Assembly (NCBI GenBank): GCA_963708135.1
Contig: OY970192.1
Coordinates: 2,144,001-2,208,000 of the forward strand
Length of the DNA stretch: 64,000 nucleotides
Direction of reading: 5' to 3'
DNA from: an uncultured Gemmatimonadales bacterium
Lineage (GTDB): Bacteria; Gemmatimonadota; Gemmatimonadetes; Longimicrobiales; RSA9
The translations under genes were made by a program, and so were the position numbers. Positions 8,947 to 64,000 of the stretch are shown piece after piece; positions within the stretch are counted from its first letter, which is position 1, and each line of letters opens with the position of its first letter. The notes under the pieces are model-generated. The model saw nothing but the letters and a program-made list of their open reading frames with translations. It did not search any database and was not told where the DNA came from.

Positions 8947-11900
8947 ATGGTTGGATTCTGGGTTCGCCCGGCCGCTCGCGGGCTGCAGGCCGCGACTTGC
9001 GTGCTGGTGCTTTGCGCCGGAAGCCTGGCCGGCCAGACGTTGACGACCGGGTCGATCCGGGGCGTGGTGCGGGGTGAGGCCGGCGCCGGGCTCGGCGGCG
9101 TATCCGTGATGGCGGTCGATGCGGCGACGGGCGTGTCGCACTCCGCGATGACGGCGCCAGGCGGGGTCTTCGTCTTCTCTCAGCTCACGCCCGGAGAGTA
9201 CGACGTCGTGGCGGAACGGCTGGGCTACCGGCCGAAGCGGGTACTGAACGTTCCGGTGCAGCCGCTGGCTTCGACGCCGGTGATCGTGGCGCTTGCGCCG
9301 GCTCCCCCGCCGGTGGGCGCGGCGGACGTCGAGCCATATGGTGGGGCGGCGCTCGCGACGGGCGGCACGCGGCAGTGGTTCGGGCGCGAGCAGGTGAACG
9401 GCTACCCGGACCTGCGCCGCGAGCTCGCGGACGTGGGTCGGCTCTCGAGCCTCTCCGACGGGGCGCTCTCGATGCAGGGGCTCCCGGGTTGGATGGCGGA
9501 CGTCGTGGTGGACGGGATCCCCGGCGCCGCGGTGCGGCAGCCGGGAGTCGCGGACGAGCGGATGCGTACGGCGGCGTTCCCGCTGAGCGGCATCGAGGCG
9601 GCGGAGCTGGTGACGAACCCGGCCGACGTGGAGTGGCCGGGCAGCGCGGCTGGGCTGCTGGCGGGATACACCCTGCGCGGGACGGACAAGCTTCGGGTGA
9701 GCGGGTTCGGCCGGTGGTCGGGCGGACCGCTCGGCAGCTCAGACCCGGGAGCACAGGCGGAGGGCACTCCGACCGACCTGCAGGGGGCCGTGGTGCTGGC
9801 CGGGCCGCTGGCGGGCGACAGCGCCCACATCCTCGTCGGCGTGGAAGGGCGACGGGTGGAACGCCCGCTGGGAGCGGCCTGGGCCGGGGCGGCAGCGAGC
9901 GCCCTGCAGGGGGCGGCGCGGGACGGCCTCGGCGTTACGCTGGACCCCTATCTCGAGCCGCGGAAGGTCAGCAGCGAGGTGATCTCCGCCTTCAGCCGGG
10001 TGGACTGGCAGGTCACCCCCGTCCACGCGGTGGAGCTTCGGGCATCGTTCGCAACGCTTCCGACCTCCGATCCCGGGTTCGACGTAACCCGCGCGGGCAT
10101 CGGACCGCTCACGACGCTGAAGGGGTCGGACGTGTCGGTGGGCGCGACGCTGCGGTCGGAGCTCTCGGCGGAGCTGACGTCGGAGCTGCGGATCGGGGTC
10201 GATCGCGGGACACGCGAGCGTGCGGCGGCTCCGATCGCCGGGATCGCGCAGGGCGCGGCGCTCCCCTTCGTCGCCCTGGCGTCGGACCGGCTGGCCTTCG
10301 GCACGGACCCGACGCTGCCGGGCAGCTTCACGGAGACGACGATCCACGCCAGCGAGACGCTCCAGAAGACCGCGGGTGCCCAGGAACTGAAGTTCGGGAT
10401 CGACCTCGCCGCGCCGAAGTACCAGGAGACGTACCGCTACGGCTCCGCGGGCGAGGTGTTCTTCGGCAGCGTAGCGGGCGTCGGCGCGAGGGATGGCGTC
10501 TTCATGGAACCCACGGGCGCGGCGCCGACGGCGAGCTTCTCCGTTCCGCGCGTCTCCCTGTTCCTGCAGGACCACTGGGCGGCGTTGCCGGGCCTGGATC
10601 TGGTGGGCGGCGTGCGCGTGGATCGAGACCGGCTGCCGTCGAGCGACATCACGCTCAACCCGGCCTGGGACAGCCTCACGGCGATCTCGAACGCGAGCCT
10701 CGCGTCCGGCCGGACTCACGTCTCGCCGCGCGCCAGCCTGACGTGGGACCTGGGCGAGCAGGGCCGGTGGATCCTCGAGGCCGCCGGGGGGCTCTACTAC
10801 GATCGGATCGATCCCGCCGTGCTGGCGCAGCTGCTGACGGACGACGGCCGCACGCAGATCCGGCGCGGCATCGGGGTCGTGGACAGCTGGCCGACGTTCA
10901 CCAGCGTTTCGGGCACGACGACGCTGGCGCCGAGCCTGAGCGTGGCGGGCCCGAAGCTCGATGCTCCGCGGACGGCGCGCGGGAGCGCGAGCCTGACCAT
11001 GGTGCTGGGCGGCGGGACGCGGCTGAGGATCGGCGGGATCGTGCGCCACACGGACTACCTGCCGCGCAGCATGGACCTGAACCTGGTGCCGGCCGCGATC
11101 GGGCAGGACCAGTTCGGGCGTGCGCTCTATGGCCAGCTCGTCCAGAAGGGCGGGGTCCTGGCGGCGCAGCCTGGGTCGAACCGGCGCTTCAGCAGCTTCG
11201 ACATCGTGTCGGGGATCTCATCCGATGGGAGCTCCGACTACCGCGCCGTGACCATCTCCCTCGAGCGGGAGGCCAGCACGCGGCTCTCGCTGCTGGCGGG
11301 CTACACCTACTCGCAGTCCACCGACAACTGGCTGGGCAGCGGAGTGTTCGGAGAGGCCACGGCGTTCCCGCCGCTGCTGGGCGGGACCGCGTCGGGGTGG
11401 GCGGACGGGACCTCCGACTTCGATGTGCCGCACCGCTTCGTGGCCGGCGCCCAGATCCGCGGACCGGCGGGGGTCCGGCTGGCGGCGCTCTACCGCTACG
11501 CGTCCGGCCGGCCGTTCACTCCCGGCTTCGGGCCGGGCATCGACGCCAATGGCGACGGCATTGCCGGCAACGATCCGGCGTTCGTGTCCCGCGACGTGAG
11601 CGGTGCGTCGGACCTGGTGGGCCAGTGGAGCTGCCTCGCCGGGCAGGCGAGCGCGTTCGCGGCGCGGAACAGCTGCCGGGGGCCCGCGATGCAGACGCTG
11701 GATGCGCGGCTGGCGGTGAAGGTCTTCTCGTTGGGTGCTTCCACCGCCGAGCTGCGCGTGGAGGGGCTCGACCTGATCCACGAGGGAACAGACGTTCCCG
11801 ACCCGGCGCTCTACCTGGTGAATCCGGCGGGGACGCTCACGAGTGACGCCAGCGGCCGCGCAACGGTTCCGCTGATGGCGAATCAGCACTTCGGCAACCC

Positions 11901-45813: not shown

Positions 45814-46914
45814 CTACATCCCGCCTCCCGGAGCCGCGCCGCCTCCCTCGCCCGGCCTGGTTGGTGGACCCGGACCTGGAGAAGTTCGATCGGGTGGCGC
45901 CTCGCCGGCTTCCGCATTCCCGCCCTCCTCCCAGAAGGCGGGGGCGTCGGGCGGCTCGGTGGCGCGCAGGCGGTCGAGGCGCTCGCGGTCGCGGTGTCGC
46001 CTGATGAGCACCAGGACGAGCAGGAACGGGGTGAGGAGGAGCCAGAAGACGAGGCTGTTGGAGAGGACGACGGCCCAGCCGTAACGGCGTGCGACGAAGG
46101 CGCGCCACTCCTTCTCGAAGAGCGCGGAGGTGAGTCCGTAGGTGGCGCGCAGGGCGGGCTCGAAGCCGGTGTCGCGCCAGCTCAGCAGGAACAGGCCGAG
46201 GCCGCGGACGCCGGCCTGGGAGGCGAGGAACTGGACCGCGGTGGCGGAGAGCAGGTAGGCGACGCGCGCGTCGGTCTCGCCGGCGGGCCACTCGAGCGCG
46301 AGGGAGTCGAGCGGCGGGGCGCGGTGGAGCGCGAAGGCGATGCGCAGCAGCCAGGCGGCGTTCCAGTCGAGGCCATCGGAAGCCCAGACCGCGTAGCCCT
46401 CGTCGAACCAGCGCGGGATGCGGCGGGGGCCGAGGAAGCGATGCAGCGCGACATGGGCGAGCTCGTGGCGCAGGATGGCGCCGAGCTGGTCCGCCTGGGC
46501 GCGGCGGGAGGCGTAGGCGGGGAGCACGATGACGCCGCGGGCGGGCTCCGCGATGCCCGCGCCCCAGCCGGGCGCCGCGCCTTCGGTGAGCGAGTCGAAG
46601 CGGGCGGGGTCGGGGGCCATGTAGATGTGCACCGGATCGGCCGGTGTGAAGAGGCCGGGCGGCAGGCCGGGCAGGGGCTGGAAGGCGGCGGCGAGCCGGG
46701 CGAGATGGGCGGCGAGCGCCTGTCGGCCGGGCCAGTAGTGGAAGCGCATGCCGTCGGCGTCGATGGTGCCGGGGGGTGCGGCGCGCGCCGTACCGGCGGG
46801 GGGGGCGGCGGGCGGCGTGGCGGACGCCTGGACGGCGGGCCCGCCTGCGGCCGGTGCCCGCACCGGAGCGGCCGCGAGCACGGCCGCCAGCGCGAGAGCG
46901 GCCGCGGCGGTCAG
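45814..46914 (-). CDS. Exported peptidase MA-like (gluzincin) metalloprotease with C-terminal TM anchor
   Basis: RHELAH...PRWFDEGYA; hydrophobic N-terminus; start uncertain (CTG 46914 or GTG 46881). Confidence 0.75.
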   Translation of the reverse strand: MTAAAALALAAVLAAAPVRAPAAGGPAVQASATPPAAPPAGTARAAPPGTIDADGMRFHYWPGRQALAAHLARLAAAFQPLPGLPPGLFTPADPVHIYMAPDPARFDSLTEGAAPGWGAGIAEPARGVIVLPAYASRRAQADQLGAILRHELAHVALHRFLGPRRIPRWFDEGYAVWASDGLDWNAAWLLRIAFALHRAPPLDSLALEWPAGETDARVAYLLSATAVQFLASQAGVRGLGLFLLSWRDTGFEPALRATYGLTSALFEKEWRAFVARRYGWAVVLSNSLVFWLLLTPFLLVLVLIRRHRDRERLDRLRATEPPDAPAFWEEGGNAEAGEAPPDRTSPGPGPPTRPGEGGGAAPGGGM

Positions 46915-47783
46915 CTCCCCTCCCTGCCCGGCTCCTCGAGGTCGGTGGCCTGCAGCGCGAGCCGTTCCTCGGAGCTGAGGATGCGGTCGATGCGGAGCAG
47001 GATGGCAATGCGCTCGTCGTGGCGGAACAGGCCCTCGAGGTAGCGTGCGGCGAGGCCGCGGAAGTAGGCGGGCGGCTCCTGGAGCTGATCGGCCGGGAGG
47101 CGTACGATCTGGGTGACGGAGTCGGCAACGAGGCCGACCCTCTCGCCGTCGAGCTCGACGACCACGATGCGGGCGCCGGCGCCGGGCTCGCGCTCGGGAA
47201 GACCGAGCCGGCCGCGCAGCGAGATGATGGGGACGGCCTGGTCGCGCACGGAGAGCACGCCATCGACGAAGTCGGGCGCGCCGGGCACGCGGCTGGGCGG
47301 CTCCCAGGCGAGCACCTCATGCACGCCCGAGACGCGCATGGCGAGCAGGTCCTCGCCGAGCCGGAGCACGACGATCGGGATGGGCGGGGCAACGACGGGG
47401 TCCTGGGGCATCTCCTCGTCTTCCCAGCCGGGCGGCAGCCCGGCCTCGAACAGCGTTTCGGGATCGAGCGGCGTCACCAGCACGTCGCCGAAATCTTCGT
47501 GGATGCCGGCGATGGCATCCACGGCGAGCGCGAAGCGGATCCGCCCGCGCCGCAGCACGAGGGCGTGTGGGCGCGCCGCCGCGGGCAGACCGAGCATGGG
47601 CCCGGGATCGAGCGCCGGGATCCAGCGGCCGCGGTAGCGGAGCAACCCGGCCGCGTGGGATGCGAGCGCCGGCAGCGCCTCCAGGCGGGCGTTCTCGAGG
47701 GCCTCCTCCACCGCGGCGGCGGGAAGGGCGAAGGCCTCGTCCCCCACGCGGAATGCGACCTCGACGGCCGCCGGCCCCGTCAC
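46911..47783 (-). CDS. cheW: Tandem CheW-domain protein
   Basis: FRVGDEAFAL...GLLRYRG..P and LRLGEDLLA...VPGAPDFVDGVLSVRDQAVPIISLR...GLVADSV; GTG overlaps cheB stop. Confidence 0.85.
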   Translation of the reverse strand: MTGPAAVEVAFRVGDEAFALPAAAVEEALENARLEALPALASHAAGLLRYRGRWIPALDPGPMLGLPAAARPHALVLRRGRIRFALAVDAIAGIHEDFGDVLVTPLDPETLFEAGLPPGWEDEEMPQDPVVAPPIPIVVLRLGEDLLAMRVSGVHEVLAWEPPSRVPGAPDFVDGVLSVRDQAVPIISLRGRLGLPEREPGAGARIVVVELDGERVGLVADSVTQIVRLPADQLQEPPAYFRGLAARYLEGLFRHDERIAILLRIDRILSSEERLALQATDLEEPGREGS

Positions 47784-48895
47784 CGCCCGGCCTTCCGGCG
47801 GCCGACCCGCGCGTCGCCGCCCGCCTGCATGGCGGCAACCCGGCGCGCGAGCGCGGGCCCGACCTCCGACAGCGGCAGCACCTCCCGGGCATAGGGCGCC
47901 GCCGCGCGCGGCATCCCGTAGATGACGGAGCTCGCGCGGTCCTGCGCGATGGTCCAGCCGCCGACCGCGGCGATGGCGCGCAGCCCATCGGCGCCGTCGC
48001 GGCCCATGCCGGTGAGCACGACGCCGATGCTGGCGGGCCCGAAGTGCGCGGCCACGGCGCGGAAGAGCACGTCGGCGGCGGGGCGCAGCCCCCAGACGGG
48101 CGGCGAGTCGAGGAGCTCGAGCGCCACGCCACCGCGCGTGCGCCGGAGGGCGAGGTGACGGCCTCCGGGCGCGATGTGGACGGTGCCGCGCGTCACGACC
48201 TCGCCATCGACCGCCTCGCGGACGGAGACGGCGCTCACACGGTCGAGGCGGTCGGCCAGATAATGCGTGAAGCGGGGCGGCATGTGTTGCACGACCAGGA
48301 TGCCGGCCGGGCAGTCGGCGGGGAGCGCGCGCACCACGTCGTCGACGGCGCGCGGGCCGCCGGTCGAGGCCGCGATGGCGACCACGCACTCTGCCGCGCC
48401 GGCGTCCCTCGGCGCGCCGGCGAGCCGCGGCATCCCCGTCGCCGGCAGGCGGACCGTCAGGTTGGCGAGGTCGGCCTGGGCGGCGGCGCGGAGCGCGGCC
48501 AGGAGTCGGCCGCGCAGCGCATCCAGCCCATCGCCGGCATCCTCGCCGGCGGGCTTCAGCACCACCTCGACGGCGCCGAGGTCGAAGGCGCGCAGCGCGG
48601 GCTCCGCGCCGCGGGCGCCGTGGGCGGAGAGGATCACGACCGGTCGCGGCGCCTCGCTCATGATGTAGCCGAGCGTATCGAGCCCGCCGAGGTCCGGCAT
48701 CTCCAGGTCGAGCGTCACGATGTCGGGGGCGCGCTCGTGGACGAGCCGGATGGCCTCGTAGCCCGTGGCCGCCTCGGCCACCACGGTGAACTCGCCCGAC
48801 GCCTCGAGGAGCGCGACGATGGTGGCGCGCACGACGGCGCTGTCCTCGACGACGAGCACGCCCGGGCGCGCCGGACCGCGCTCAGAGGAGGACAT
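47780..48895 (-). CDS. cheB: Chemotaxis methylesterase CheB (REC plus esterase)
   Basis: DIVTLDLEMP; ASTGGP, QHMP, LTGMGRDGA catalytic motifs. Confidence 0.96.
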   Translation of the reverse strand: MSSSERGPARPGVLVVEDSAVVRATIVALLEASGEFTVVAEAATGYEAIRLVHERAPDIVTLDLEMPDLGGLDTLGYIMSEAPRPVVILSAHGARGAEPALRAFDLGAVEVVLKPAGEDAGDGLDALRGRLLAALRAAAQADLANLTVRLPATGMPRLAGAPRDAGAAECVVAIAASTGGPRAVDDVVRALPADCPAGILVVQHMPPRFTHYLADRLDRVSAVSVREAVDGEVVTRGTVHIAPGGRHLALRRTRGGVALELLDSPPVWGLRPAADVLFRAVAAHFGPASIGVVLTGMGRDGADGLRAIAAVGGWTIAQDRASSVIYGMPRAAAPYAREVLPLSEVGPALARRVAAMQAGGDARVGRRKAGR

Positions 48896-49370
48896 CGGGG
48901 CGCAGGATCGAGGTGACCACGACGCGGCCGTCCTCGACGTGGAAGAACACGGAGCGGCCGTGGCCGCCGCCGACCTCCTCGCCGGCCAGGGGGACGCCCG
49001 CGGTGCCGAGCGCGTCCCGGGCGGCCTCCACGTTGCGCGCGCCGAGCGTCTGCTCGCCTTCCGCGGTGAGGGACTCGAACATGGCCGCGCCGCCGATGAT
49101 GCGCGCGGTCAACCGGGCGCGCACGGCGCCCAGCTCGTCGAGCGCCGCGAGGGCGAGGGGGATGGCGCTGGCGACGAAACGGCCGGGCGGCACCTGGCGG
49201 CGGGCGGCGCTCGGATCGGGGAGCATGGCGTGGGTGAGGGCGCCGACGCGGGCGAGGGGGTCGTGCAGCGCCACGGCCACGCACGAGCCGAGGCCGAGGG
49301 CGAGGAGCACGCCGCCTTCACGGGCGACCTTCACCTCCCCGATCCGGACCACGAGCCGCTCCTCAGTCAT
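48882..49370 (-). CDS. cheD: Chemoreceptor glutamine deamidase CheD
   Basis: GLGSCVAV, HAMLP, GGAAMF, LGARN, EVGGGHGR. Confidence 0.93.
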   Translation of the reverse strand: MTEERLVVRIGEVKVAREGGVLLALGLGSCVAVALHDPLARVGALTHAMLPDPSAARRQVPPGRFVASAIPLALAALDELGAVRARLTARIIGGAAMFESLTAEGEQTLGARNVEAARDALGTAGVPLAGEEVGGGHGRSVFFHVEDGRVVVTSILRPDVLL

Positions 49371-50299
49371 GCGCGCCGGAAGATGCGCTCGCGGTTGGCC
49401 ACGGGCTCGAAGCTCCGTGCGCCCGCCCCGAACAGCGTTTCCACCTTGCCCATCACCAGAAAGCCGCCGGGCGCGAGCGCCTCGTGGAAGCGGAGGAACA
49501 GCGACTCCTGTACCGGCCGCTCGAAGTAGATGATCACGTTGCGGCAGAGGATCAGGTGCTGCGCCCGGGGGAAGGGGCCGACCATCAGGTCGAGGGACTC
49601 GAAGCGGACGCGGTGGCGCAGCTCGGCCGCGACCCGGCTGGCGCGGGGCCCCTCGAACCAGCGGCGGCGCAGGCGCTCGGGGATCTCGCCGAAGGCGAAG
49701 TCGCCGTACTCGGCCCGTTCCGCGATGCGCAGGCTCTCGCGGTCGATGTCGCTGGCGCGGATGACGAAGCGGTCCAGCCGGTCCGTGAGCCCGTGCTCCT
49801 CGGCATAGTCGGCGAGCAGGATCGCCACGGAGAACGGCTCCTCGCCGCCGGCCGCGCCGGCGCTCCAGATCCGCACCTCGCGGTCGCGCAGCGCGAAGAG
49901 CGCGGGCACGACCTCCGCGCGCAGTGTCTCCCACACCTCGGGGTTGCGGTAGAACTTGCTGACGTTGATGGTGATCGTGTCGAGCAGCCGCTGGTACTCC
50001 TCGGCGTCGCGGCCCACCAGGTCGGCGTAGTCGGCGTAGCGGTGGACGCCCCGGGCGCGCATGCGCACGGCGATGCGGCGGCGCAGGCACTTCTCCTTGT
50101 AGCCGGCGGAGCGCAGGCCTCCCTTTGCCTCGATGAGCTCCTTGAGCGCCTGGAGCTCGTCCGCGTCCTCCGCGGCGAGATCCCCGTACGCGAGCGGCAG
50201 TGGCAGCGGGGCCGGGTAACGGAGCGGCCCCGCCGCCGGCGCGAGGGGGCCGGACGGCGCGGCGCCCCCGTCGCCGGGCACGGCGCCGTCAACCGGCAT
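49367..50299 (-). CDS. cheR: Chemotaxis methyltransferase CheR
   Basis: YKEKCLRRRI, TINVSKFYRN, IWSAGAAGGEEPFS, LILCRNVIIYF. Confidence 0.94.
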   Translation of the reverse strand: MPVDGAVPGDGGAAPSGPLAPAAGPLRYPAPLPLPLAYGDLAAEDADELQALKELIEAKGGLRSAGYKEKCLRRRIAVRMRARGVHRYADYADLVGRDAEEYQRLLDTITINVSKFYRNPEVWETLRAEVVPALFALRDREVRIWSAGAAGGEEPFSVAILLADYAEEHGLTDRLDRFVIRASDIDRESLRIAERAEYGDFAFGEIPERLRRRWFEGPRASRVAAELRHRVRFESLDLMVGPFPRAQHLILCRNVIIYFERPVQESLFLRFHEALAPGGFLVMGKVETLFGAGARSFEPVANRERIFRRA

Positions 50300-51914: not shown

Positions 51915-53798
51915 TCAGTCCAGCTCCTGCACGATGAGATCCTCCAGCGGCCAGTCCCGAACCAGCTTCTCCCGGCTGAGGAACCAGGCATCGACGATGC
52001 CGCCGGACGGCGCGCGGCCGTCCTTGCCCACGCCGGCGCTCCGAGCGGCCACGCCTGCCGCAGGCGACGGCGCCGCCTCCGCCTCCACGGCCCCGGCCGC
52101 GGCGCCGGCCTCCTCCGGGTCCGCCGGCGCCGCCGCAGCGGGAGCCGCTTCAGGCGCGGACGCGGCGACCTCGACGGCGAGACCGCTGTCGAGCCGCGTG
52201 CGCAGGCGCTCGGCGATGCCGGCGAGCGCCTTCGGCGGACGCTCGGCGCCGAAGACGAGCTGGGCGCCGGCGCGCTGGAGCGACTCGAAGAGGTGGAACA
52301 GCTCCTCCTGGGCGCGCTCGGTATCGGCGAGCGCATCCACGCCGTCGAGGATGAGCGCGCCGGCGCGGCGGTAGCGGGCGCGCCACGCCTCGATGCGGTT
52401 GTGCTCGAGCGCCTGGATGAGCTCGCTCGCGAAAGCGGCGCCGGGCAGGTAGGCCACGGCGCAGTCCGGCCGCGCGCGCTGCAGCTCGGCGCCGAGCGCG
52501 CCGAGCAGCTCGGCGCGGCCCTCGCGCGGCCCGTGCACGAAGAACGGGTTGTAGCGGCGCCCCGGCTCCTCGACGGCCGCGCGGGCGGCGCGCAGGGCGA
52601 AGGAGTCGCCGAGGCGGAGGGCGTCGAAGGAGCGGTCGGGCGGCGGCGCGGGGAGCGGTCGGGCGCGTTCGCGCACGCGCGAGAGCAGCTCCTCGGCGTC
52701 GGGGCGGCGGTCCGGGTCGCGGAAGAGGTCCATGCGCGCTAGCTCGGGCGCGGCCGGCTCGAGCGATGCGATCTCGCCAGCAACCTCGCGGAGCCGCTCG
52801 ACATCGGCCTCGTAGGCGCGCACGATGCGCTCGACCTCCTCGTCGGGCGGCACCTGCGCGAGCGCCTTCTCGAGCCGGTTGGTGCGGTAGCCCTCGCCCT
52901 CCCAGCGCAGGATTGCGTTGCCGATCTGGCGCTCGGCGCTTCCCGCCGCGCCGACCACCTCGCCGACGGTGCCGGCGATGTCGGCGAGGAACTGGTCGAA
53001 CTCGCCCTCTACCGGCTCCGCGGCGACGACTCCGGCGGCGGCGGTCGCACCGCCCGGGCCGGCCGCGGCGCCGAAGAGGCGGCCGACCTCGTCGGGCGCG
53101 ACCTCCCGGTCCTCGAGCTCTTGCACGGCCAGCAGCCGGTTGAGGCCGCCCTGCAGCTCGCGGACGTTGCCGAAGGCGACGCGGGCCAGCGCCTCGGCCA
53201 CGCCGCCCGCGAGACGCTGCCCGCGTTCCTCGACCTTGCGCCGGAGGATGGCCACGCGGGTCTCGTAGTCGGGGGCCATGATGTCGACGATGAGGCCGCC
53301 GGAGAAGCGCGAGAGCAGGCGCTCATCCAGGCCGTCGATCTCGGGCGGCGGGCGGTCGCTGACGAGGACGACCTGCCCGCCGCGCGCGGAGAGGGCGTCC
53401 CAGGCGCGGATCAGCTCCTCCTGCGCGCGGTGCCGCCCGGCCAGGAACTGGACGTCGTCGAGGAGCAGGATGTCGACGGCCTCGACCCGGGTTCGGTAGG
53501 CATCGCGGTCGCCTGCCTCGACGGAGGCGATGAGCCCGTCCATGAAGTGCTCGAGCGTGTCGTAGACCAGCGCCAGCTCGGGGTGGATGCGGGTGGCGTG
53601 GTGGCCGATGGCGTTGAGCAGGTGGGTCTTGCCGAGCCCGGACGCGCTGTAGATGAAGAGCGGGTTGTAGGACGTGCCCGGCGCCTCCGCCACGCGGCGG
53701 GCGGCGGCGCAGGTCAGGCGGTTGCCCGCGCCGATGACGAAGGAGTCGAAGGTGAAGCGGGGATCCAGCTCGAGGGGACTCATGCGGGCGCGGCTCAC
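51915..53798 (-). CDS. DnaA/Hda-like protein with two tandem AAA+ domains and no DNA-binding domain
   Basis: FTFDSFVIG..N, YNPLFIYSASGLGKTH, LLDDVQFL, RLLSRF, NVRELQG; second copy YNPFFVHG...QEELFHLF...RLRTRL. Confidence 0.85.
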   Translation of the reverse strand: MSRARMSPLELDPRFTFDSFVIGAGNRLTCAAARRVAEAPGTSYNPLFIYSASGLGKTHLLNAIGHHATRIHPELALVYDTLEHFMDGLIASVEAGDRDAYRTRVEAVDILLLDDVQFLAGRHRAQEELIRAWDALSARGGQVVLVSDRPPPEIDGLDERLLSRFSGGLIVDIMAPDYETRVAILRRKVEERGQRLAGGVAEALARVAFGNVRELQGGLNRLLAVQELEDREVAPDEVGRLFGAAAGPGGATAAAGVVAAEPVEGEFDQFLADIAGTVGEVVGAAGSAERQIGNAILRWEGEGYRTNRLEKALAQVPPDEEVERIVRAYEADVERLREVAGEIASLEPAAPELARMDLFRDPDRRPDAEELLSRVRERARPLPAPPPDRSFDALRLGDSFALRAARAAVEEPGRRYNPFFVHGPREGRAELLGALGAELQRARPDCAVAYLPGAAFASELIQALEHNRIEAWRARYRRAGALILDGVDALADTERAQEELFHLFESLQRAGAQLVFGAERPPKALAGIAERLRTRLDSGLAVEVAASAPEAAPAAAAPADPEEAGAAAGAVEAEAAPSPAAGVAARSAGVGKDGRAPSGGIVDAWFLSREKLVRDWPLEDLIVQELD

Positions 53799-54415
53799 TT
53801 CCCGGGTGCGGCGGGCACGGCGCCCGCACGGAACTTCCTCGAGAGGCTGCGCAGCACGAGATCGCTCACGGCGCGCAGCGTGTCGAAGACGCCCTCGCCC
53901 GTCACGGCGATGGCCGGGAAAGCGGGGACGCCACGGAAGTTGAGCGCGTCCTCGAGCTCGTCCCAGCCCTGGGTGCCGGGCAGGTCGCGCTTGTTGTACT
54001 GGAGCACGAGGGGGGTGTCGAGTACGTCGAGGTCCTGGTCGATCAGGTTCTCGTGCAGGTTGCGCAGGCTCTCCAGGTTCTGCTCCGTCTGCTCGGGCTG
54101 CGAGTCCGCCACGAAGACGACGCCATCCGCGCCGCGCAGCACGAGCTTGCGGGTGGCGTCGTAATAGACCTGGCCGGGCACGGTGTAGAGCTGGAGCCGG
54201 GTGCGGAAGCCGGAGATGGCGCCCAGGTCGAGCGGCAGGAAATCGAAGAACAGCGTGCGGTCCGTCTCGGTGGCGAGCGAGACCATGGAGCCCTTCCGCT
54301 CGTCCGGCACGTGGGCGTGGATGTACTGCAGGTTCGTCGTCTTGCCGGACCGGCCCGGTCCGTAGTAGACGATCTTGCAGGTGATCTCCCGGGTCGAGTA
54401 GTTGACGAGCGACAT
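53795..54415 (-). CDS. mglA: MglA-family small Ras-like GTPase
   Basis: KIVYYGPGRSGKTTN, DRTLFFDFLPL, TVPGQVYY, NKRD. Confidence 0.93.
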   Translation of the reverse strand: MSLVNYSTREITCKIVYYGPGRSGKTTNLQYIHAHVPDERKGSMVSLATETDRTLFFDFLPLDLGAISGFRTRLQLYTVPGQVYYDATRKLVLRGADGVVFVADSQPEQTEQNLESLRNLHENLIDQDLDVLDTPLVLQYNKRDLPGTQGWDELEDALNFRGVPAFPAIAVTGEGVFDTLRAVSDLVLRSLSRKFRAGAVPAAPGK

Positions 54416-54909
54416 CAGGCCTCTCTCACGGCATCGGTCGGCAGCGCGACCCGCACGCCGGCCTCCAGGTCGTGTTCGAAGCTGGCGGCGTCACGGGAGC
54501 CGCCGGCGCCGCGCAGCGCCTCGAGGCCGCGCACCTCCTGGCCCAGCCGCTCGAAGAAGAGCTGGACCAGCCCGAGCGAGGAATCGTCGTCGAAGATCGC
54601 GATCAGGATGAGCTCGGCTCCGGGCGCCCGGAGCGGCGCCAGGAAGAGCTGCCGGTCGCGGCCGGCGTGGTGCAGATGCGTCCACCGGCCCGCCGGCGTC
54701 ATGCCGGCCAGCATTCCGGCGGCGGCGTGCGCCGCGGCCGCGAGCGAGGCGACGTTCACCACCTCGTAGCTGCGGGTGAAGCCGTGCTGCGCCAGCACCT
54801 GCCCCGCGCCGCTGACCAGCAGGCAGGTGCGGACGCGGGCCTCGCGCACGAATCGGCCGACCGGGTCCCCGAGCGCGGCGACGATTCGGTCCAGGTCCTC
54901 CCGCTTCAC
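54415..54909 (-). CDS. mglB: MglB-like roadblock/LC7 protein
   Basis: LLVSGAGQVLAQHG...ASLAAA...IFDDDSSLGLVQL; directly upstream of mglA. Confidence 0.75.
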   Translation of the reverse strand: MKREDLDRIVAALGDPVGRFVREARVRTCLLVSGAGQVLAQHGFTRSYEVVNVASLAAAAHAAAGMLAGMTPAGRWTHLHHAGRDRQLFLAPLRAPGAELILIAIFDDDSSLGLVQLFFERLGQEVRGLEALRGAGGSRDAASFEHDLEAGVRVALPTDAVREA

Positions 54910-55253
54910 GAGAGCCCCTCCGCCGCCCTGTGGACCTCGAGCCGGACCAGCCCGAGCTGCGCGCCATGGTCGGCCACCGCCACGACCATGAGCTCCCCGG
55001 CGCCGGCCATGACCACGTGCCCCTCCGCCGCCTCGAGCTGCAGCGTGTCCAGCCGGCCGAATCCCGCGGCGTCCGCGGCCCGCGAGGTCCGGCGGAACAC
55101 CGAGGCCGCCAGCGCCGCCACCGGACCGCCGTCCACCCGGGCGGCGAGCTCGGCCACGACGGGAACGCCGGCCTGCGCGTCCACGATGAGGGCACCGCGC
55201 ACGCCGGGCACGCGGCTCAGCCGCTCCAGGGCGCCACCGAACGGGGCGTTCAT
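54906..55253 (-). CDS. Stand-alone roadblock/LC7 protein
   Basis: VPGVRGALIVDAQAG..AALAA...LGLVRLEV; GGAGG RBS. Confidence 0.8.
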   Translation of the reverse strand: MNAPFGGALERLSRVPGVRGALIVDAQAGVPVVAELAARVDGGPVAALAASVFRRTSRAADAAGFGRLDTLQLEAAEGHVVMAGAGELMVVAVADHGAQLGLVRLEVHRAAEGLS

Positions 55254-56173
55254 ACGACCTCCTCCAGGTAGCTCCGGGCGAGCCGCTCGGCGCGGGCGGC
55301 CGCGCGCAGCACCCACCCCGTCGGCGCGCTGCGGCTCACGGCGATCAGGACGGCGAGCCCGCGCCCGAGCGGCGCGAGGTGCAGCATGGCCTCCTCCGCC
55401 TCCAGCAGGATCCCCTTCCACTCGCCCAGGCCGAGCAGCGAGGCGGTACGGCCGGCCTCGTCGATCGCGCCGCCCAGGATCGCGCCGGTGGCCTCCATCC
55501 CGGCACCGCCCCTCACGGTGCCCGCGAGCACGAGGCCCTGGTCATCGAGCACGAGCGCGCCGATGAACGGCGCCTCATCGAGCAGCGCCTCGAAGATGCG
55601 GTTCGGGTCCCGCGGCGCGACGTCCGCCCCGGCGCGGCCGGCGCTTCGCGCGGCGTGGGGCGCGGGCGCGTGGGGCGCGGGCGCGTGGGGCGCGGGCGCG
55701 GCGGGCGACGGCGAAGCGGGCGCCGCGGGCGCTCCGGGAGGCGCGCTGGCGGCGGCCGCACCGTCGCGGCGGGCGAGCAGCTCGAGCGCCTCGCGGACGG
55801 CCGGATCGGCGGGGCGCAGGGAAGCGGCCGACTCGAGGTGTCGCCTCGCCCCGGCGTACTCGCCGCGCTCGAGATCGTAGAAACCCATGCCGCGGTGGGC
55901 GTCGAAGTCCTGCGGCTGGAGCCGCAGCACGATCGACCACTCGTCGGATGCGCGCTCCCGGTCGCCGGCCTCGAGGTAGAGGAGCGCGAGCAACCCGTGC
56001 GCCTCCAGGTGCGAGGGGTTCCTCTCGAGGCCGCGCAGACAGACGCGCAGCGCCGCGTCATGCCGGCCCTGGCGCCGGTAGGCGCGCGCGAGCGGCAGGA
56101 AGGCCGGCGAGCCGGGGTCGCGCGCCACCTGCTCGCTCCAGTGCTGCAGGTCCGCGGGTCCGGGTGTGCTCAT
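55250..56173 (-). CDS. TPR plus roadblock/LC7 fusion protein
   Basis: N-terminal TPRs ([16 protein letters not shown]), APAPH linker repeats, C-terminal [14 protein letters not shown]. Confidence 0.8.
55653..55697. repeat. Three 15-bp tandem repeats encoding the APAPH linker
   Basis: GCGTGGGGCGCGGGC x3. Confidence 0.8.
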
Positions 56174-57297
56174 GCGTCCGTGTCCTGTGTCAGGAGCTGG
56201 GTCAGGGTGTCCACCGCCGCGAGCGCCTCCTCCACGATGCGCCGGCCCGGCGCATTGGTCGAGAGCCGAAGGAAGGTGGTCCAGGCATCGACGGCGCGGG
56301 CAAACTCGCCGGTCCGCACGGCCGCGAAGCCGAGGCGATAGTGGGCCGTCGGCGAGAGCGGATCCAGTCCGACGGCGCGCGCGAATGCCTCCGTGGCCGC
56401 GCGCATGCGGCCCTGCGCGAGCAGGGTGCGCCCCGAGAGCAGGGAGAACTCGGCGCGCTCGGCGTAGGTGGCCTCGAGCTCGCCCACCCGGCGCGATGCC
56501 TCCTCGAGCTGCCCGCCCGAGAGCAGCGCCTCCACCTCGGAGACGGCCGCGTAGAGCTTGCGCTCGGGCATCCGGCTGCGGCGCTCGTGGACCTCGACCA
56601 CGCCGGTGCTGACGAGGCCGAAGATAATGCGGGCCACCTCGAAGCTGCTCTTGCCGACGGCGGCGGCGAGCTGGCGCAGGTCGCGCTCACCGTCGATCTC
56701 CGCCAGCACCTCCCACTCGTCGGGGTGCAGCTCGAGGGTCGCGCTCTCGCGCTCATCCACGGGCGCGAGCACCGGCACGGCTTCCTCGTTCGGCACCTTC
56801 GACTCGAGCCGCGTCCACTCGTCGATCCGGCGCGCGCCCTCCATGAGCAGCGAGTCCACGCGGACCCGGACGCCCACGCGCTGGTGCCCGATCTCGGGCC
56901 GGTCCTCGAAGCGGAAGTAGCCCTGCTCCCAGCTCATCACATCGAAGATGGTCTCCTCGATCTGGAAGCGGATCTGCTGGTGGATGTCGTCCACCGAGAC
57001 ACTGCCCATCTCCACCAGCACGTCCGCCAACCGGCGCGACGGGTCCTGGCGCTGCAGCTCGAGCGCGCGCTCCAGCTCGCGGTCCGTCAGCTTGCCGGCC
57101 CGCAGCAGCAGCTGCCCGAGCTGCCGACTCGAGCGGCGCCGCACGGCGAACAGCACGGCGCCGTTGTGGAAGTGGACGATGGACTCGTCGTTCAGCCGGT
57201 CCGAGCGCACGGTCAGCACGCCCGTCTTCCGCGCCAGGTCCAGCAGCTGCAGCACATCCTGGATACTCAGCTCCTCCAGCGGTCCCTCGATCGCCAT
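56170..57297 (-). CDS. DUF4388 (PATAN-like) plus TPR protein
   Basis: [17 protein letters not shown]...KTGVL...[13 protein letters not shown]-terminal TPRs. Confidence 0.85.
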
Positions 57298-60059: not shown

Positions 60060-60683
60060 CTAGGCGAGGCGGAGCGCCTGGAGGAGCACGTCGAGCGAGA
60101 CGCGATCGGGCACGAGCAGGAAGTGCGCGCTCAGAGGCTCGCCCTCATCGGCCATGGAGAGCCGCGTGTCGATGCAGAGCACGTAGTCCTCGTTCTCGCC
60201 GAAGTTCAGGTACGCGCTGGTCAGCACGGCACCTGCCTGGTCGATGGCCATGGCCGGAACGGACATGAGGAGCAGCATGCCGAGGAACTCGGAGAGGGCG
60301 TTCAGGTAGGCGCCGACGAGGATGTTGCCGACCTCCTTGAGCACCGACTCCTCCATCTCAGCGAACGCCTCGGGGAACGGGATCGGCCCGCGCGCGAGCA
60401 GGATCTCCGCGAGCCGCTTCGCCGTCGCGGCCGGGAACACCTGCACGGTCCGGCCGGTCGCATCTCCGAGGACGCGCATGAGCACGGCGGCCACGGGCTG
60501 CGCGGGGTCCCCGAGCAGCTCCGCGATCTGCTCCAGCGGCACGATCCGGAGCTCCGGGGCGCGTACGCCGATGCGCCGGCTCGTCATCGTGGAGAGCGCC
60601 GTGGCGGCGTGACCCGCGCCAATGTTGGCCACCTCGCGCAAGCCGTCGAGCTGCAGATGGTCCAGCTCCCGGACGTCCTTCAT
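60060..60683 (-). CDS. cheC: CheY-P phosphatase CheC
   Basis: Two ExxN active sites: LREVANIGAGHAATALS and LKEVGNIL. Confidence 0.93.
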   Translation of the reverse strand: MKDVRELDHLQLDGLREVANIGAGHAATALSTMTSRRIGVRAPELRIVPLEQIAELLGDPAQPVAAVLMRVLGDATGRTVQVFPAATAKRLAEILLARGPIPFPEAFAEMEESVLKEVGNILVGAYLNALSEFLGMLLLMSVPAMAIDQAGAVLTSAYLNFGENEDYVLCIDTRLSMADEGEPLSAHFLLVPDRVSLDVLLQALRLA

Positions 60684-60697
60684 CGGACCTTCCCCGC

Positions 60698-62584
60698 TCA
60701 GATCACGTTCATGGGATCCAGCACCAGCGCCGGCCGGCCGTCGGCCAGCAGCGTGACGCCGGAGAAGAAGGGGAGCGTTCCCACGGCGGGATCGAACCCC
60801 TTCACGACCACCTGCTCGCGCGCGACCAGCTCGTCCACGGCCAGCGCGGTGCGGCGCTCTCCGACCTCGGCGATGAGCGCCGCCTTCTCCCCGCCCCGGC
60901 CCGCCGGCGCCTCGAGCAGCTCGCTCAGACGGAGCAGCGGCACGACCTCGCCGCGCAACCGGAGGACCTCGCGGCCACGCACCCGGGCGAGCGAGCCGTC
61001 CAGCAGGTCCACCGCCTCCGAGACGTGCGTCATCGGCACCGCGTAGTCCTCACCCGCCACGCGCACGCGGAGCGCCGACGCCACGGCCAGCGTGATCGGC
61101 AGCCGCAGCGTGAAGGTGGAGCCCCCGCCAGGCGTGGTGCGGAGGTCAACGCTGCCGCCCAGCGCGCGCACCCGCTCTACCACGGCGTTCATGCCGACGC
61201 CGCGCCCGGAGACCTGCGTCACCTGGCGGGCCGTCGAGAGGCCCGGCAGCGCGAGCAGCCGGAGCAGCGCCTCCCCCGTGGCGGGCTCCGCCTCCTCCGG
61301 CCCGGCAAGCCCGAGCTCGCGCGCCCGCTCCACGACCCGGGCGGCGTCCACGCCGCGGCCGTCGTCGCGGACCCGGATCACCACCGTGGACTGCTCCCGG
61401 ACGGCGCTCAGCACGAGCAGGCCAGCGGCCGGCTTGCCGGCCGCCTCCCGCTCGGCCGCGCTCTCCAGCCCGTGATCGACGGCGTTCCGGAGCAGGTGCA
61501 CGAGCGGATCGGCGATCTCGTCCAGCACGGATCGGTCGAGCTCAATGTCGCGGCCCTCCAGGCGGAACTCGACCTGCTTCTCGAGCGCCCGGGCGGCATC
61601 CCGCACCATGCGCGGGAAGCGCTCGAGCACCTCGTCCACCGGGACCATGCGCATGGCGAGCGTGGTGCCCTGCAGCCCCTCGAGCAGGGCGCCGACCCGG
61701 TCGGCCAGGTCCGCCACCGGCCCCGGCTCCCCGTCCGTCAGCTCGCGCAGCCGCAGCGTCAGCACGGACAGCTCACCGATCCCGTCCGCCAGCGCGTCCA
61801 GGTGCCGCTGGTCCACGCGCAGGTGCCGCGAACGCGCCGCCTCCGCACGCCGCGCCGCCGCCCGCCGCGCCGCCGGTCCCTCGAAGGCGACGGACTCGAC
61901 GTCTCCCGCCAGCCGCACCGCGGACTCCACGGCCTGCGGATCCGGCGTCCCGGCCAGGAACAGGCGCAGCTCGCCGCCGAATCCCGCCGTCACGTCCTCG
62001 GGATCGCTGCCCAGCAACTCGGCCACACGGGCCACGTTCTGGCGCGCGATGAGCGCCCGCGCGGCAGGCAGCGGGGCGGCGGGGTCGATGCGCACCCGGA
62101 CCACCAGCGCCGTGCCCTCCGGGGGCGGAGCGGGGGGAGCGAGCGCCGCCGCCGCGGCGGCCGCCTCCGCGGCGAAGCGGGCGCCGCCGCGCCCGTGGGC
62201 CTCGGCACCGGCGTTGCCGGAGGCGATATCCCGCGGCGCAGCGGCCACCTGCGCCGCGTCCTCCGAATCCTCCGCCTCGCTGGCCTCGTCCACCGCATCG
62301 CGCAGCTCATCGGAGCGCCGGAGCAGCTCGTCGATCAGCGCGGCGTCCACGCGCGCGCCGCCGCGGATCCCCTCGAGCCGGTCCTCCAGCGCGTGTGCCA
62401 GCGCCGCAACCCGGGGGTAGCCCATGGTCGCGGCCATCCCCTTGATCGTGTGCGCGGCGCGGAACGCCTCCTCGACGCCCGCGACGCCGCCGGAGGACTC
62501 GACCAGCAGCAGCCCGTCCGAGAGCACGCGCAGGTGCTCGCGCGCCTCCGAGCGGTAGAGCTCGAGGTAGCGGCTCAGGTCCAC
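60698..62584 (-). CDS. cheA: Chemotaxis histidine kinase CheA
   Basis: Hpt FRAAHTIKGMA, P2 domain, HLLRNAVDHG, DDGRG, SGRGVGM, C-terminal CheW-like domain. Confidence 0.96.
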   Translation of the reverse strand: MDLSRYLELYRSEAREHLRVLSDGLLLVESSGGVAGVEEAFRAAHTIKGMAATMGYPRVAALAHALEDRLEGIRGGARVDAALIDELLRRSDELRDAVDEASEAEDSEDAAQVAAAPRDIASGNAGAEAHGRGGARFAAEAAAAAAALAPPAPPPEGTALVVRVRIDPAAPLPAARALIARQNVARVAELLGSDPEDVTAGFGGELRLFLAGTPDPQAVESAVRLAGDVESVAFEGPAARRAAARRAEAARSRHLRVDQRHLDALADGIGELSVLTLRLRELTDGEPGPVADLADRVGALLEGLQGTTLAMRMVPVDEVLERFPRMVRDAARALEKQVEFRLEGRDIELDRSVLDEIADPLVHLLRNAVDHGLESAAEREAAGKPAAGLLVLSAVREQSTVVIRVRDDGRGVDAARVVERARELGLAGPEEAEPATGEALLRLLALPGLSTARQVTQVSGRGVGMNAVVERVRALGGSVDLRTTPGGGSTFTLRLPITLAVASALRVRVAGEDYAVPMTHVSEAVDLLDGSLARVRGREVLRLRGEVVPLLRLSELLEAPAGRGGEKAALIAEVGERRTALAVDELVAREQVVVKGFDPAVGTLPFFSGVTLLADGRPALVLDPMNVI

Positions 62585-62642
62585 GCCGGCCCCCTCCGCC
62601 CCCGCGGCAGGCGCGCCGGGCAGGCGCCGGATCGGGCTCCGC

Positions 62643-63005
62643 TCACCCGAGCACCCGCTGCACGGCCTCGAGCACGCGCGATGGCTGGAACGGCTTGACC
62701 ACGAAGTCGCGGGCGCCCGCCTGGATCGCCTCCACCACGAGCGCCTGCTGGCCCATGGCGCTGCACATGAGGATCCTGGCCTCGGGGAAGTCCTTCACGA
62801 TCGCGCGTACCGCCTCGATCCCCCCCATGTCCGGCATGACGATGTCCATGGTGACGAGGTCCGGCAGCAGCTCGCGGTAGCGCTCCACCGCCTGCGCCCC
62901 CGTCTCGGCCTCGCCCACCACCTGCAGCCCGGCCTGCTTCAGGATCTGGCCCAGCATGGTGCGCATGAAGATCGCATCGTCGCAGATCAGTACCGTGCGT
63001 GCCAT
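62643..63005 (-). CDS. cheY: Single-domain response regulator CheY (Bacillus/DifD-type)
   Basis: ICDDAIFMR, DLVTMDIVMP, MCSAMGQQ, KPF. Confidence 0.93.
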   Translation of the reverse strand: MARTVLICDDAIFMRTMLGQILKQAGLQVVGEAETGAQAVERYRELLPDLVTMDIVMPDMGGIEAVRAIVKDFPEARILMCSAMGQQALVVEAIQAGARDFVVKPFQPSRVLEAVQRVLG

Positions 63006-63145
63006 TGCTCCCCCGGTCGTGAAGCGATTCCATACCGTCGAGCGGCCCCTTCGTCCGCGGCTCCGGCGGACCGGCGGCCCGGCGCCCGCCACTCGGCGGC
63101 CGGGCGCGCGCCGGTCTCGGCGAGCTCCCCTTGCGGCCCGACCGA

Positions 63146-63625
63146 TCAGCCCAGCAGCCGCGCCAGCAGCCGGTCCGGATCCACGGCCAGGAACGGCTGC
63201 TCCGCGAACGTGCCGATCCCGAGCACGTGCTCCTGCTCGATGTCCAGCGCGCGCAGCGTCTCGGCCCCGATCGGCAGGTCCGCCTCCGCGCTCGCCACGG
63301 CCAGCACCGCATCGACCGCCAGCCCCACCCACCGCTCCTCCCATTCGAGCAGCAGGAGCCGATGGTCCGCCATCCCACCGGACGGCCGGAGCGCCAGCGC
63401 GGCGCCGAAGTCGAGCACCGTGATGACCCGGCCGCGCAGCCCGACCAGCCCGCACACCGCCGGGCCGCAGCCCGGCAGGCGCGTGAACGGCCGCGGGGTC
63501 ACGATCTCGCGGACCCGCCAGAGCGGAATCGCGAAACGGTACCCGTCACAGGCGAACACCACCCATCGCGGCGCGGCCGCGAGGGCAGCGTCAGGCATCG
63601 CCGCGGCACTCGGAGTTGAAGCCAT
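63146..63625 (-). CDS. cheW: CheW coupling protein
   Basis: FAIPLWRVREIV...TRLPG...GLVGLRGRVITVLD...GLAVDAV. Confidence 0.88.
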   Translation of the reverse strand: MASTPSAAAMPDAALAAAPRWVVFACDGYRFAIPLWRVREIVTPRPFTRLPGCGPAVCGLVGLRGRVITVLDFGAALALRPSGGMADHRLLLLEWEERWVGLAVDAVLAVASAEADLPIGAETLRALDIEQEHVLGIGTFAEQPFLAVDPDRLLARLLG

Positions 63626-63670
63626 TGACTGTCCACGAACGCGGACGGGGAACCCGGGCTGGATCCGAGG

Positions 63671-63700
63671 AAGATAGTGCCCGGACGGGGGTTCGGTCAA
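63671..63700 (-). promoter_or_regulatory. Sigma70-type promoter for the che/mgl operon
   Basis: TTGACC-N18-TATCTT about 45 nt upstream of cheW. Confidence 0.5.
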
Positions 63701-63909
63701 TCGCGAGGCAGGACGGACGGGCTGCGGGCTGCGGGCTGCGGCCACGGGCCGCGGCACGCAGTACGGGTGCGCCGGTGGGCGTCATCGCAAGGGAGCGGAA
63801 CACAACCTGCGGTCGGCGCGCGCGGCTCCGGGACGGCGCGGCGGGATCGCGCCCGGGGAACGCCCTCCGGCAATCCCCGCACACCCCCTCGAAACGACGG
63901 CGCGAACGC

Positions 63910-64000
63910 ATGAAGCGCAGGATCTGCCTGAGCGCGCTCGTGGCGGGACTCGCTCTCGTCCGGGCGGGCCCGCTGCGGGGGCAATCGGCCGACACGACGC
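63910..64000 (+). CDS. Start of an exported protein, truncated by window edge
   Basis: MKRRICLSALVAGLALVRAGPLRGQ resembles a Sec signal peptide. Confidence 0.5.
   Translation, partial: MKRRICLSALVAGLALVRAGPLRGQSADTT

Follow-up and report, generated by a model that had tools for sequence, protein, structure and literature searches.

A 64,000-nucleotide stretch of the genome of an uncultured Gemmatimonadales bacterium (called the window throughout) encodes a protein in which domain III of the replication initiator DnaA occurs twice, and the gene lies within an operon of chemotaxis (Che), MglA, Roadblock and PATAN-tetratricopeptide repeat (PATAN-TPR) genes. The evidence leans towards a reading in which this DnaA-like protein would be an ATP-driven assembly switch, leashed to the neighboring PATAN-TPR protein in a pilus or polarity module, and not a replication factor. 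The reading is carried by the anatomy of the protein, the conservation of its motifs and of its operon, a minimal gene pair, and an in-silico docking prediction. Its status as a non-initiator and its membership of the operon are close to certain. To our knowledge, DnaA domain III has been regarded as a dedicated replication module, of which Hda and the helicase loaders are the only well-known offshoots; the protein described here is a member of the DnaA/Hda family of AAA+ proteins in a new architecture and role.

A DnaA relative outside replication initiation

A sequence-only reading of 51915..53798 had described a repurposed DnaA paralogue with an active and a degenerate AAA+ domain in tandem, and had concluded that it is not a replication initiator. 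The motifs on which that description was built are all present in the translation of 51915-53798, both those of the first domain (LDPRFTFDSFVIG, SASGLGKT, LLDD, RLLSRF and NVRELQG) and those that follow it (HGPREGRAE, LILDGV, RLRTRL and the DAWFLSREKLVRDWP tail). The domain content that it anticipated is also the content returned by Pfam, with Bac_DnaA found twice and neither DnaA_N nor Bac_DnaA_C. The first Bac_DnaA copy occupies amino acids (aa) 11-172 (E 1.9e-54, scanned alone) and the second about aa 398-542, corresponding to profile positions 16-161 of 162 (E 1.9e-33, scanned alone). Bac_DnaA_C gave no match in the protein, including in a scan of the C-terminal half at E<=1, and the N-terminus, which has no DnaA_N match in Pfam, begins 5-10 residues ahead of domain III.

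The source genome, a single contig of 5.45 Mb that is 97.65% complete, has a canonical DnaA of its own. A six-frame search matched Bac_DnaA_C once, at C1:4147591-4147788. The match belongs to a DnaA of 471 aa, complete with domain IV, that is encoded near C1:4.147 Mb, and 2 Mb separate this gene from the DnaA-like gene. With domains I and IV absent and a canonical dnaA elsewhere, the conclusion that the protein is not an initiator stands. It carries a caution for annotation: several relatives are automatically labeled 'chromosomal replication initiator protein DnaA', and the cut-off of the NCBIfam DnaA equivalog TIGR00362 is passed by the window protein (381 bits versus 343.9). This match falls in two stretches, the best of which covers profile positions 103-329 of 437, and the passing of the cut-off appears to be an artefact of the doubled domain. 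Three weak Bac_DnaA matches of identical score (29.8 bits, in 264-aa frames) at G000:C1:1079234-1079542, 1320062-1320370 and 1824839-1825147 look like copies of one IS21-type IstB helper ATPase.

The start of the gene needs one correction. The overlap of a GTG start with the mglA stop, noted in the sequence-only reading, is real (GTGA), but GTG is doubtful as the true start, the orthologues beginning at the downstream ATG. This ATG, 15 nt past the GTG (MSPLELD...), aligns with the N-termini of the orthologues, and the database gene call is of 622 aa; because both match it, the ATG, 11 nt beyond the mglA stop, is probably the real start. The DnaA-like gene and mglA are tightly coupled whichever start holds.

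A resemblance to Hda had also been proposed. In such a scheme domain 1 or domain 2 would dock on DnaA domain III, where an arginine finger would stimulate or block DnaA-ATP hydrolysis or filament growth, tying replication initiation to the polarity or motility state. Mixed oligomers are sterically plausible, since the alignment of domain 1 with the DnaA of the same genome shows 47% identity along all of domain III (224 aa, gap-free, box VII included); both domains conserve the box VII arginines, and NCBI labels relatives 'DnaA/Hda family protein'. The Hda and HdaA models fail, however, with TIGR03420 at 120.4 bits versus a cut-off of 194.8, NF005982 at 50.2 versus 268 and NF006571 at 20.6 versus 297 (HdaA). 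Hda carries an N-terminal beta-clamp-binding motif of the Gln-Leu type, and no conserved motif of this or any other type precedes domain III in 17 aligned orthologues, which have only 4-9 variable residues there. In addition, the gene is fixed in the Che/MglA/PATAN operon in 17 of 20 loci; after apparent operon decay it stays with PATAN-TPR and with no replication gene; and it was not found in 130 of the 401 genomes of the phylum, though all of these must regulate DnaA. An Hda-like modulator is accordingly regarded as very unlikely, and the suggestion is not borne out.

Anatomy of the tandem protein

The whole protein was modeled with AlphaFold2 on a 62-sequence alignment, with a mean predicted local distance difference test score (pLDDT) of 86.5 and a predicted template modeling score (pTM) of 0.52; the coordinates of its parts are collected in Table 1. 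Domain 1 carries Walker A GLGKT (K57), Walker B D114 and D115, SDRPP, the box VII arginines R160 and R164 and sensor II R213. Foldseek aligns it with domain III of Bacillus subtilis DnaA (8bv3) at a root-mean-square deviation (rmsd) of 1.8 A over 233 columns and 45% identity. From these motifs domain 1 looks catalytically competent.

The helical spacer of the sequence-only reading was recovered by AlphaFold2 as helices at aa 267-379, which form a conserved three-helix bundle, here designated LNK. This domain carries the motifs ILRWEGEGYRT and LRDPDR and, modeled alone, reaches a pLDDT of 90.1 and a pTM of 0.73. No Pfam family and no Foldseek match at E<=0.001 was found for it, and in the model it appears to be a generic three-helix bundle. 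Assignment of LNK as an EzrA spectrin-like repeat was rejected, the best VIA-align Z of 7.4 lying under the level that is meaningful for helical bundles.

The sequence identity of domain 2 is 36% with domain 1 and 37% with the canonical DnaA of this genome. In the window copy the P-loop reads HGPR-EGRAE, with the Lys missing and one residue deleted, Walker B is reduced to D485-G486, and the box VII arginines R531 and R535 are retained. The domain stops after the strand at 540-543, and the lid helices are absent from the AlphaFold2 model. This copy would thus be nucleotide-dead with its box VII arginines retained, much as had been read from the sequence. A type II tandem AAA+ architecture (p97/NSF/Rix7-like) was considered for the pair of domains and set aside because both belong to the DnaA family; Foldseek aligns proteins of this type only at an rmsd of 13-16 A, with 14-16% identity.

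Beyond domain 2, AlphaFold2 and Pfam agree with the earlier description of an Ala-rich linker and a short tail, with no C-terminal DnaA-box helix-turn-helix. The linker differs in length among orthologues, and the alignment is heavily gapped there. The core of the tail is conserved, with E610 present in 153, K611 in 161, W616 in 174 and P617 in 163 of 186 relatives.

A conserved operon and its minimal pair

The operon runs along the minus strand, starting with a 621-aa open reading frame (ORF), CheW, a CheY-type receiver, CheA, CheC/X, a 916-aa TPR protein and a PATAN-TPR protein, and continuing with TPR-Roadblock, two Roadblock proteins, MglA, the DnaA-like gene, a further PATAN-TPR, CheR, CheD, CheB and a double CheW. 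The upstream gene encodes a true MglA (E 1.5e-77 to the Myxococcus xanthus MglA structure 5ymx), and the GTG start of the downstream PATAN-TPR gene lies 3 nt past the stop of the DnaA-like gene.

Twelve window proteins were compared by tblastn with 20 loci from 20 genomes, which represent six families of the phylum. PATAN-TPR adjoins the DnaA-like gene in all 20 loci and mglA does so in 17. The order TPR, PATAN, TPR-Roadblock, Roadblock twice, MglA, DnaA-like, PATAN-TPR, CheR, CheD, CheB, CheW is largely retained in 17 of the 20, a count in which single genes went undetected in a few loci. As judged from these sequences, the Che...MglA...Che operon appears to be conserved across most of the soil phylum Gemmatimonadota. 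The sequence-only reading had overlooked this phylum-wide Che/MglA/Roadblock/PATAN/TPR operon together with the adjoining PATAN-TPR gene, and the mglA linkage that it did propose is common but not obligatory.

The smallest form of the locus is found in a genome of family f2 (G288, locus L050), where only the DnaA-like gene and PATAN-TPR lie between RluD (with DivIVA and IleRS) and Peptidase_MA_2. In the window genome the same RluD/Peptidase_MA_2 site, flanked by RluD, LspA, IleRS and DivIVA upstream and by a Peptidase_MA_2 gene downstream, holds the whole operon. By this synteny the pair appears to be the remainder after operon decay. In the window genome (L066:8514-9899) as in G288 (L050:14983-15834), DivIVA is encoded a few genes ahead of the operon site, a placement that is conserved synteny of housekeeping genes.

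These loci also bear on the possibility that MglA is the immediate partner. The ATPase would then bind MglA-GTP or the MglB/Roadblock complex, explaining the translational coupling, and PATAN-TPR would be secondary. The MglA is genuine, mglA directly precedes the gene and, depending on the start, either overlaps it by GTGA or ends 11 nt before it, and the two genes are adjacent in 17 of 20 loci. Yet mglA is not adjacent in the other three (L047, L049 and L050), about 700 bp lie between it and the gene in L048, and L050 retains the gene at a site that lacks MglA, Roadblock and Che genes; on this evidence an MglA effector or regulator is quite unlikely. In L047 (G380:C4:357500-376800), a locus from the window's own family, the operon order is retained and mglA was not found between Roadblock and the DnaA-like gene, the gap there being about 50 bp.

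In one earlier study, group 1 MglA is reported in Gemmatimonadetes and MglA/MglB homologues are reported to be encoded near PATAN proteins (PMC4316618). In the full-text literature, with subscription journals outside coverage, no paper was found that joins a DnaA-like or DnaA-paralogue protein to MglA, PATAN, Roadblock or Gemmatimonadota.

Predicted docking of the tail

Prediction of a complex between PATAN-TPR (540 aa, 20-row alignment) and the tail (aa 590-627) gave values of 0.85, 0.85 and 0.84 in three runs for the interaction prediction score from aligned errors (ipSAE), as against 0.01 for the best of three controls. The runs share at least 85% of contacts, with a partner pLDDT of 73 or more. 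Among solved complexes 116 of 157 reach the pass mark, as do 2 of 215 mismatched pairs; these counts apply here only approximately, since own alignments were used. In the predicted interface tail residues 599-627 lie along the concave TPR groove, against PATAN-TPR residues 261-495, and the tightest pairs are those of tail residues 603-612 with L398, A401, L402, L428, V429, A432, R436, Q459, K462. The PATAN-TPR residues Q459, K462, A484, L491, G492 and D494 are each at least 95% conserved. The tail is therefore predicted to dock in the PATAN-TPR groove, and the prediction supports binding.

A tail predicted to be held by a protein also bears on a very different scheme, in which the nucleoid or single-stranded DNA would be the anchor. 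ParA-like ParC and PpfA, encoded in some che operons, place chemosensory arrays; in a DnaA-type counterpart, ATP-bound domain III filaments on DNA would serve as the spatial cue for a positioning ATPase. The ATPase gene does lie within a che operon, DnaA domain III forms an ATP filament on single-stranded DNA (PDB 3r8f is among the structural matches), and the locus is without a methyl-accepting chemotaxis protein (MCP), the sole MCPsignal match of the genome, at C1:3332484, being 1.1 Mb away. However, Pfam detects neither domain IV nor any other DNA-binding domain in the protein, and the position matching the Escherichia coli single-strand-binding arginine R245 is Gly in some orthologues. The predicted tail-TPR docking, moreover, supplies a protein anchor in place of a DNA anchor, and a DNA-anchored positioning ATPase is very unlikely.

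Family distribution and variation of the second domain

More than 120 close relatives, at 53-67% identity, come from Longimicrobiales and other Gemmatimonadota. A HMMER search with aa 238-627 gave 131 cluster representatives at E<1e-30, and all relatives bearing a taxon name belong to Gemmatimonadota. When the 150 best HMMER matches were classified by block hidden Markov models, 66 proved to be full-length tandem forms. A six-frame search found the LNK domain in 271 of 401 Gemmatimonadota genomes, mostly in single copy, with a distribution by family of 161/166 in f4, 72/93 in f5, 4/4 in f3, 5/5 in f8, 2/2 in f6, 5/7 in f1 and 21/70 in f2; the same search found it in none of the 53 genomes of f7 and f9-f12. 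Four unpublished genomes (G182, G057, G097 and G157), all positive, are included in this tally, which without them is 267/397, with f3 at 3/3.

The two domains differ in how strictly their motifs are kept. In 186 tandem members the domain 1 motifs are near-invariant (K57 180/181, D114 181/181, D115 180/181, R164 168/182, R213 174/184). In domain 2, 117 of 186 relatives keep an intact Walker A, and 78 keep both it and the acidic pair of Walker B; both motifs are broken in 38, the window copy among them. The two box VII arginines, on the other hand, are both retained in 166 of 186 relatives, and of the 38 copies that have lost both Walker motifs 36 retain them, a pattern that fits an arginine-donor or interface role. 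Because the arginines persist even in dead copies while the Walker motifs are mosaic, the arginine pair appears to be under stronger constraint than the nucleotide site of domain 2.

Degeneracy of the second domain, which the sequence-only reading had described in the window copy, is not a trait of the family, given the intact Walker A of most relatives and the existence of short forms with no domain 2. Thirteen representatives are without a domain 2 match, 7 of them with the arrangement D1-LNK-TAIL, and both f3 loci examined carry such a short form (domain 1, LNK, tail). In a quick tree of domain 1, domain 2 and DnaA, with SH-aLRT support only and one very long branch, the short forms nest at at least three places among long-form domain 1 sequences, which suggests that domain 2 was lost repeatedly; the domain 2 branches are longer. 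Since short forms exist without domain 2, the constant core of the family would be domain 1, LNK and the tail.

DnaA domain III also occurs in other non-initiator architectures among metagenomic proteins (P0250, P0166, P0240, P0222, P0258 and P0266). These architectures include TIR with DnaA-III (430 aa), two DnaA-III with domain IV (673 aa), DnaA-III with DUF835, LNK-like repeats with DnaA-III (six copies, 1248 aa; three copies, 1356 aa), and MshEN, a pilus-ATPase N-terminal, cyclic di-GMP-type domain, with two DnaA-III (1876 aa). The MshEN fusion hints at a second, independent pointer from the DnaA-III module to pilus machinery.

Proposed mechanism and output

For the favored reading, an assembly switch leashed to PATAN-TPR, the following steps can be envisaged. 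Domain 1 would bind and hydrolyze ATP and would assemble head to tail via its box VII arginines, as DnaA domain III does. Domain 2 would be a lid-less half-module, active in some relatives, dead in the window copy and absent in others, whose retained arginine pair would form an in-cis interface or act as an arginine donor, tuning or capping the assembly of domain 1. The flexible linker would carry the conserved aromatic/acidic peptide into the TPR groove of the PATAN-TPR encoded 3 nt downstream, so that ATP-dependent assembly would cluster or release PATAN-TPR. By this means the ATPase, commanded by Che and MglA, would gate an output that is polar and non-flagellar. The ATPase activity, the oligomerization, the part played by domain 2 and an output through pili are what we infer, the oligomerization and the domain 2 role being drawn from DnaA biology and arginine conservation.

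As for the output, FHIPEP/FlhA has no match in the source genome, 97.65% complete on its one contig, which has five T2SSE-type ATPases, one of them PilB-like. Across the phylum FlhA occurs in 101 of 401 genomes and does not track the DnaA-like protein: f4 has LNK in 161/166 and FlhA in 33/166 genomes, and f10 has FlhA in 13/13 and LNK in 0/13. Within f2 a PilB-model match at E<=1e-217 is present in 18 of 21 LNK-positive versus 1 of 49 LNK-negative genomes; the genomes are related and the E-value split was picked after the bimodal distribution had been seen, so the association is a lead and not a statistical test. A preprint on Synechocystis describes PATAN as an output domain that binds the N-terminal domains of PilB1 and PilC (bioRxiv 10.1101/2021.06.11.447907). 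It is because PATAN domains elsewhere bind the type IV pilus motor that the ATPase is suggested to gate a pilus-type output, and the most economical reading is that the operon is a non-flagellar polarity module, probably one of type IV pili.

Several observations weigh against the switch as just outlined. A pTM of 0.52 leaves the relative placement of domains 1 and 2 unfixed. The absence of domain 2 from the short forms means that the mechanism assigned to it is not essential to the family. In one short form (L048, G106:C18, about 9628-10830, minus strand) Walker A is intact and both SDRPP and NVRELQG (sensor II) are lost, which may mark a further decay step or an altered function. On the partner side, the predicted PATAN-TPR contacts are no richer in conserved residues than the other TPR positions (mean identity 0.619, as compared with 0.604; p 0.34 by permutation), and the docking prediction covers a single TPR protein out of the operon's four. 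PilB-like genes are near-universal, being found in 387 of 401 genomes at E<=1e-50, and f7 has PilB in 28/30 genomes and LNK in 0/30. The co-occurrence of LNK with pili is only permissive, because PilB extends to families without the DnaA-like protein.

A fuller version of the switch, in which a replication-initiator ATPase would have been exapted for assembly in the cytoplasm, is unlikely. ATP-bound domain 1 would form DnaA-style open spirals, with domain 2 capping them or giving an arginine finger, and each leashed tail would hold one PATAN-TPR; the PATAN-TPR proteins, as pilus-motor adaptors, would be clustered and released at the pole on CheA/CheY and MglA command. Domain 1 may also co-assemble with DnaA, given the identity that it still shares with it, and so expose the motility state to replication control.

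Other features of the locus

The 621-aa ORF that opens the operon, just before CheW, occupies window positions 63697-64000 and runs on past the last position of the window (L066:698-2563, minus strand). Pfam assigns it to no family at E<=0.001, and its place is one in which a receptor would be expected. Among sequencing runs matched to this stretch, none of RNA was listed, and the one DNA run was of a soil metagenome with a small share of its words. The parts of the DnaA-like protein and the remaining operon genes are listed in Table 1.

Table 1. Window coordinates of the DnaA-like gene, the segments of its product and the genes of the surrounding operon
Feature	Position	Strand	Remarks
Whole DnaA-like tandem ATPase ORF	51915..53798	-	627 aa from GTG; 622 aa from ATG at 53783
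Domain 1 (aa 11-242)	53073..53768	-	Complete DnaA domain III, AAA+ core and lid
Domain 1 P-loop SASGLGKT (aa 51-58)	53625..53648	-	From translation; K57 is Lys in 180/181 aligned relatives
Connector (aa 245-266)	53001..53066	-	Variable, predicted disordered; pLDDT below 50, gapped in orthologue alignment
LNK domain (aa 267-379)	52662..53000	-	Predicted antiparallel three-helix bundle, conserved; then Pro-rich stretch to aa 392
Domain 2 (aa 393-545)	52164..52622	-	DnaA domain III core; lid and sensor II absent
Ala/Pro/Glu low-complexity linker (aa 546-598)	52005..52163	-	Predicted disordered (pLDDT below 50 at aa 558-601)
Conserved C-terminal tail (aa 599-627)	51918..52004	-	D-x-W-F-L-x-R-E-K-h-h-W-x-W-P ... 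D-x-L-V-E-E-L-E; predicted TPR-docking peptide
PATAN(DUF4388)-TPR, 540 aa	50289..51911	-	Pfam DUF4388 E 3.7e-37, plus TPRs
mglA, 206 aa, Ras-like polarity GTPase	53795..54415	-	Directly upstream of DnaA-like gene
Roadblock/LC7 (MglB-like) gene	54415-54909	-	Pfam Robl_LC7, E 2.3e-9
Roadblock/LC7 (MglB-like) gene	54906-55421	-	Pfam Robl_LC7, E 1e-9
TPR-Roadblock gene	55250-56173	-	Pfam Robl_LC7, E 2.4e-5
Second PATAN-TPR protein	56170-57297	-	Pfam; gene order conserved
916-aa TPR protein	57307-60057	-	Pfam; gene order conserved
CheC/CheX	60060-60683	-	Upstream Che block (60060..63757)
CheA	60698-62584	-	Upstream Che block
CheY-type receiver	within 62643-63455	-	Upstream Che block
CheW	63146-63757	-	Upstream Che block
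CheR	49367-50299	-	Downstream Che block (46911..50299)
CheD	48882-49391	-	Downstream Che block
CheB	47780-48895	-	Downstream Che block
Double CheW	within 46911-48389	-	Downstream Che block

Significance and comparison with known systems

The locus places a DnaA domain III module, conserved across most of a phylum, in a chemotaxis/polarity operon, where its predicted partner is a protein and not DNA. New here are the variability and dispensability of domain 2 with its arginines retained, the LNK bundle, the syntenic minimal pair, and the predicted tail-in-groove interface. If the mechanism holds, the family would add a class of nucleotide switch that is new to the control of polarity and pili in bacteria, would supply second domains in active, dead and deleted states, a natural series along which pseudo-ATPase evolution could be followed, and would offer a concrete, testable peptide-TPR interface.

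The closest structural relative is DnaA domain III itself (B. subtilis 8bv3/8btg and Aquifex aeolicus 2hcb/3r8f), with which domain 1 shares fold and nucleotide motifs at 44-45% identity and rmsd 1.7-1.8 A, and domain 2 shares the core. Unlike DnaA, the DnaA-like protein is without domains I, II and IV, its core is doubled with a second copy that has no lid or sensor II, it has gained a three-helix-bundle insert and a docking tail, and its gene belongs to a motility/polarity operon. Hda and HdaA likewise derive from DnaA, as AAA+ proteins that lack domain IV and conserve an arginine finger; the window protein differs from them in being a tandem of 627 aa versus about 230 aa, in failing their models, and in its unrelated gene context.

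For the tail, the nearest parallel is found among chaperones. C-terminal EEVD peptides of Hsp70/Hsp90 dock into TPR grooves of co-chaperones, and the disordered linker of the DnaA-like protein similarly ends in an acidic ..VEELE that is predicted to lie in the groove of a TPR superhelix. The tail is about 29 residues long and Trp/Phe-rich, however, whereas EEVD is short.

At the level of the module, the Frz, MglA/MglB/MglC and TPR effector SgmX system of M. xanthus is matched in the window operon by a true MglA, several Roadblock proteins, large TPR proteins and a full Che set. In Myxococcus, by contrast, the genes are dispersed and the module is without a DnaA-like ATPase; in turn, no RomR/RomX-like gene was found among the operon genes scanned against Pfam. 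Finally, the PATAN-TPR partner shares its DUF4388/PATAN domain with the PatA-type PATAN regulators PixE and PixG of cyanobacteria. It differs from these in that PATAN is fused to TPRs, with no receiver domain, and in being the predicted receptor of an ATPase tail; its binding to pilus proteins is proposed here by analogy.

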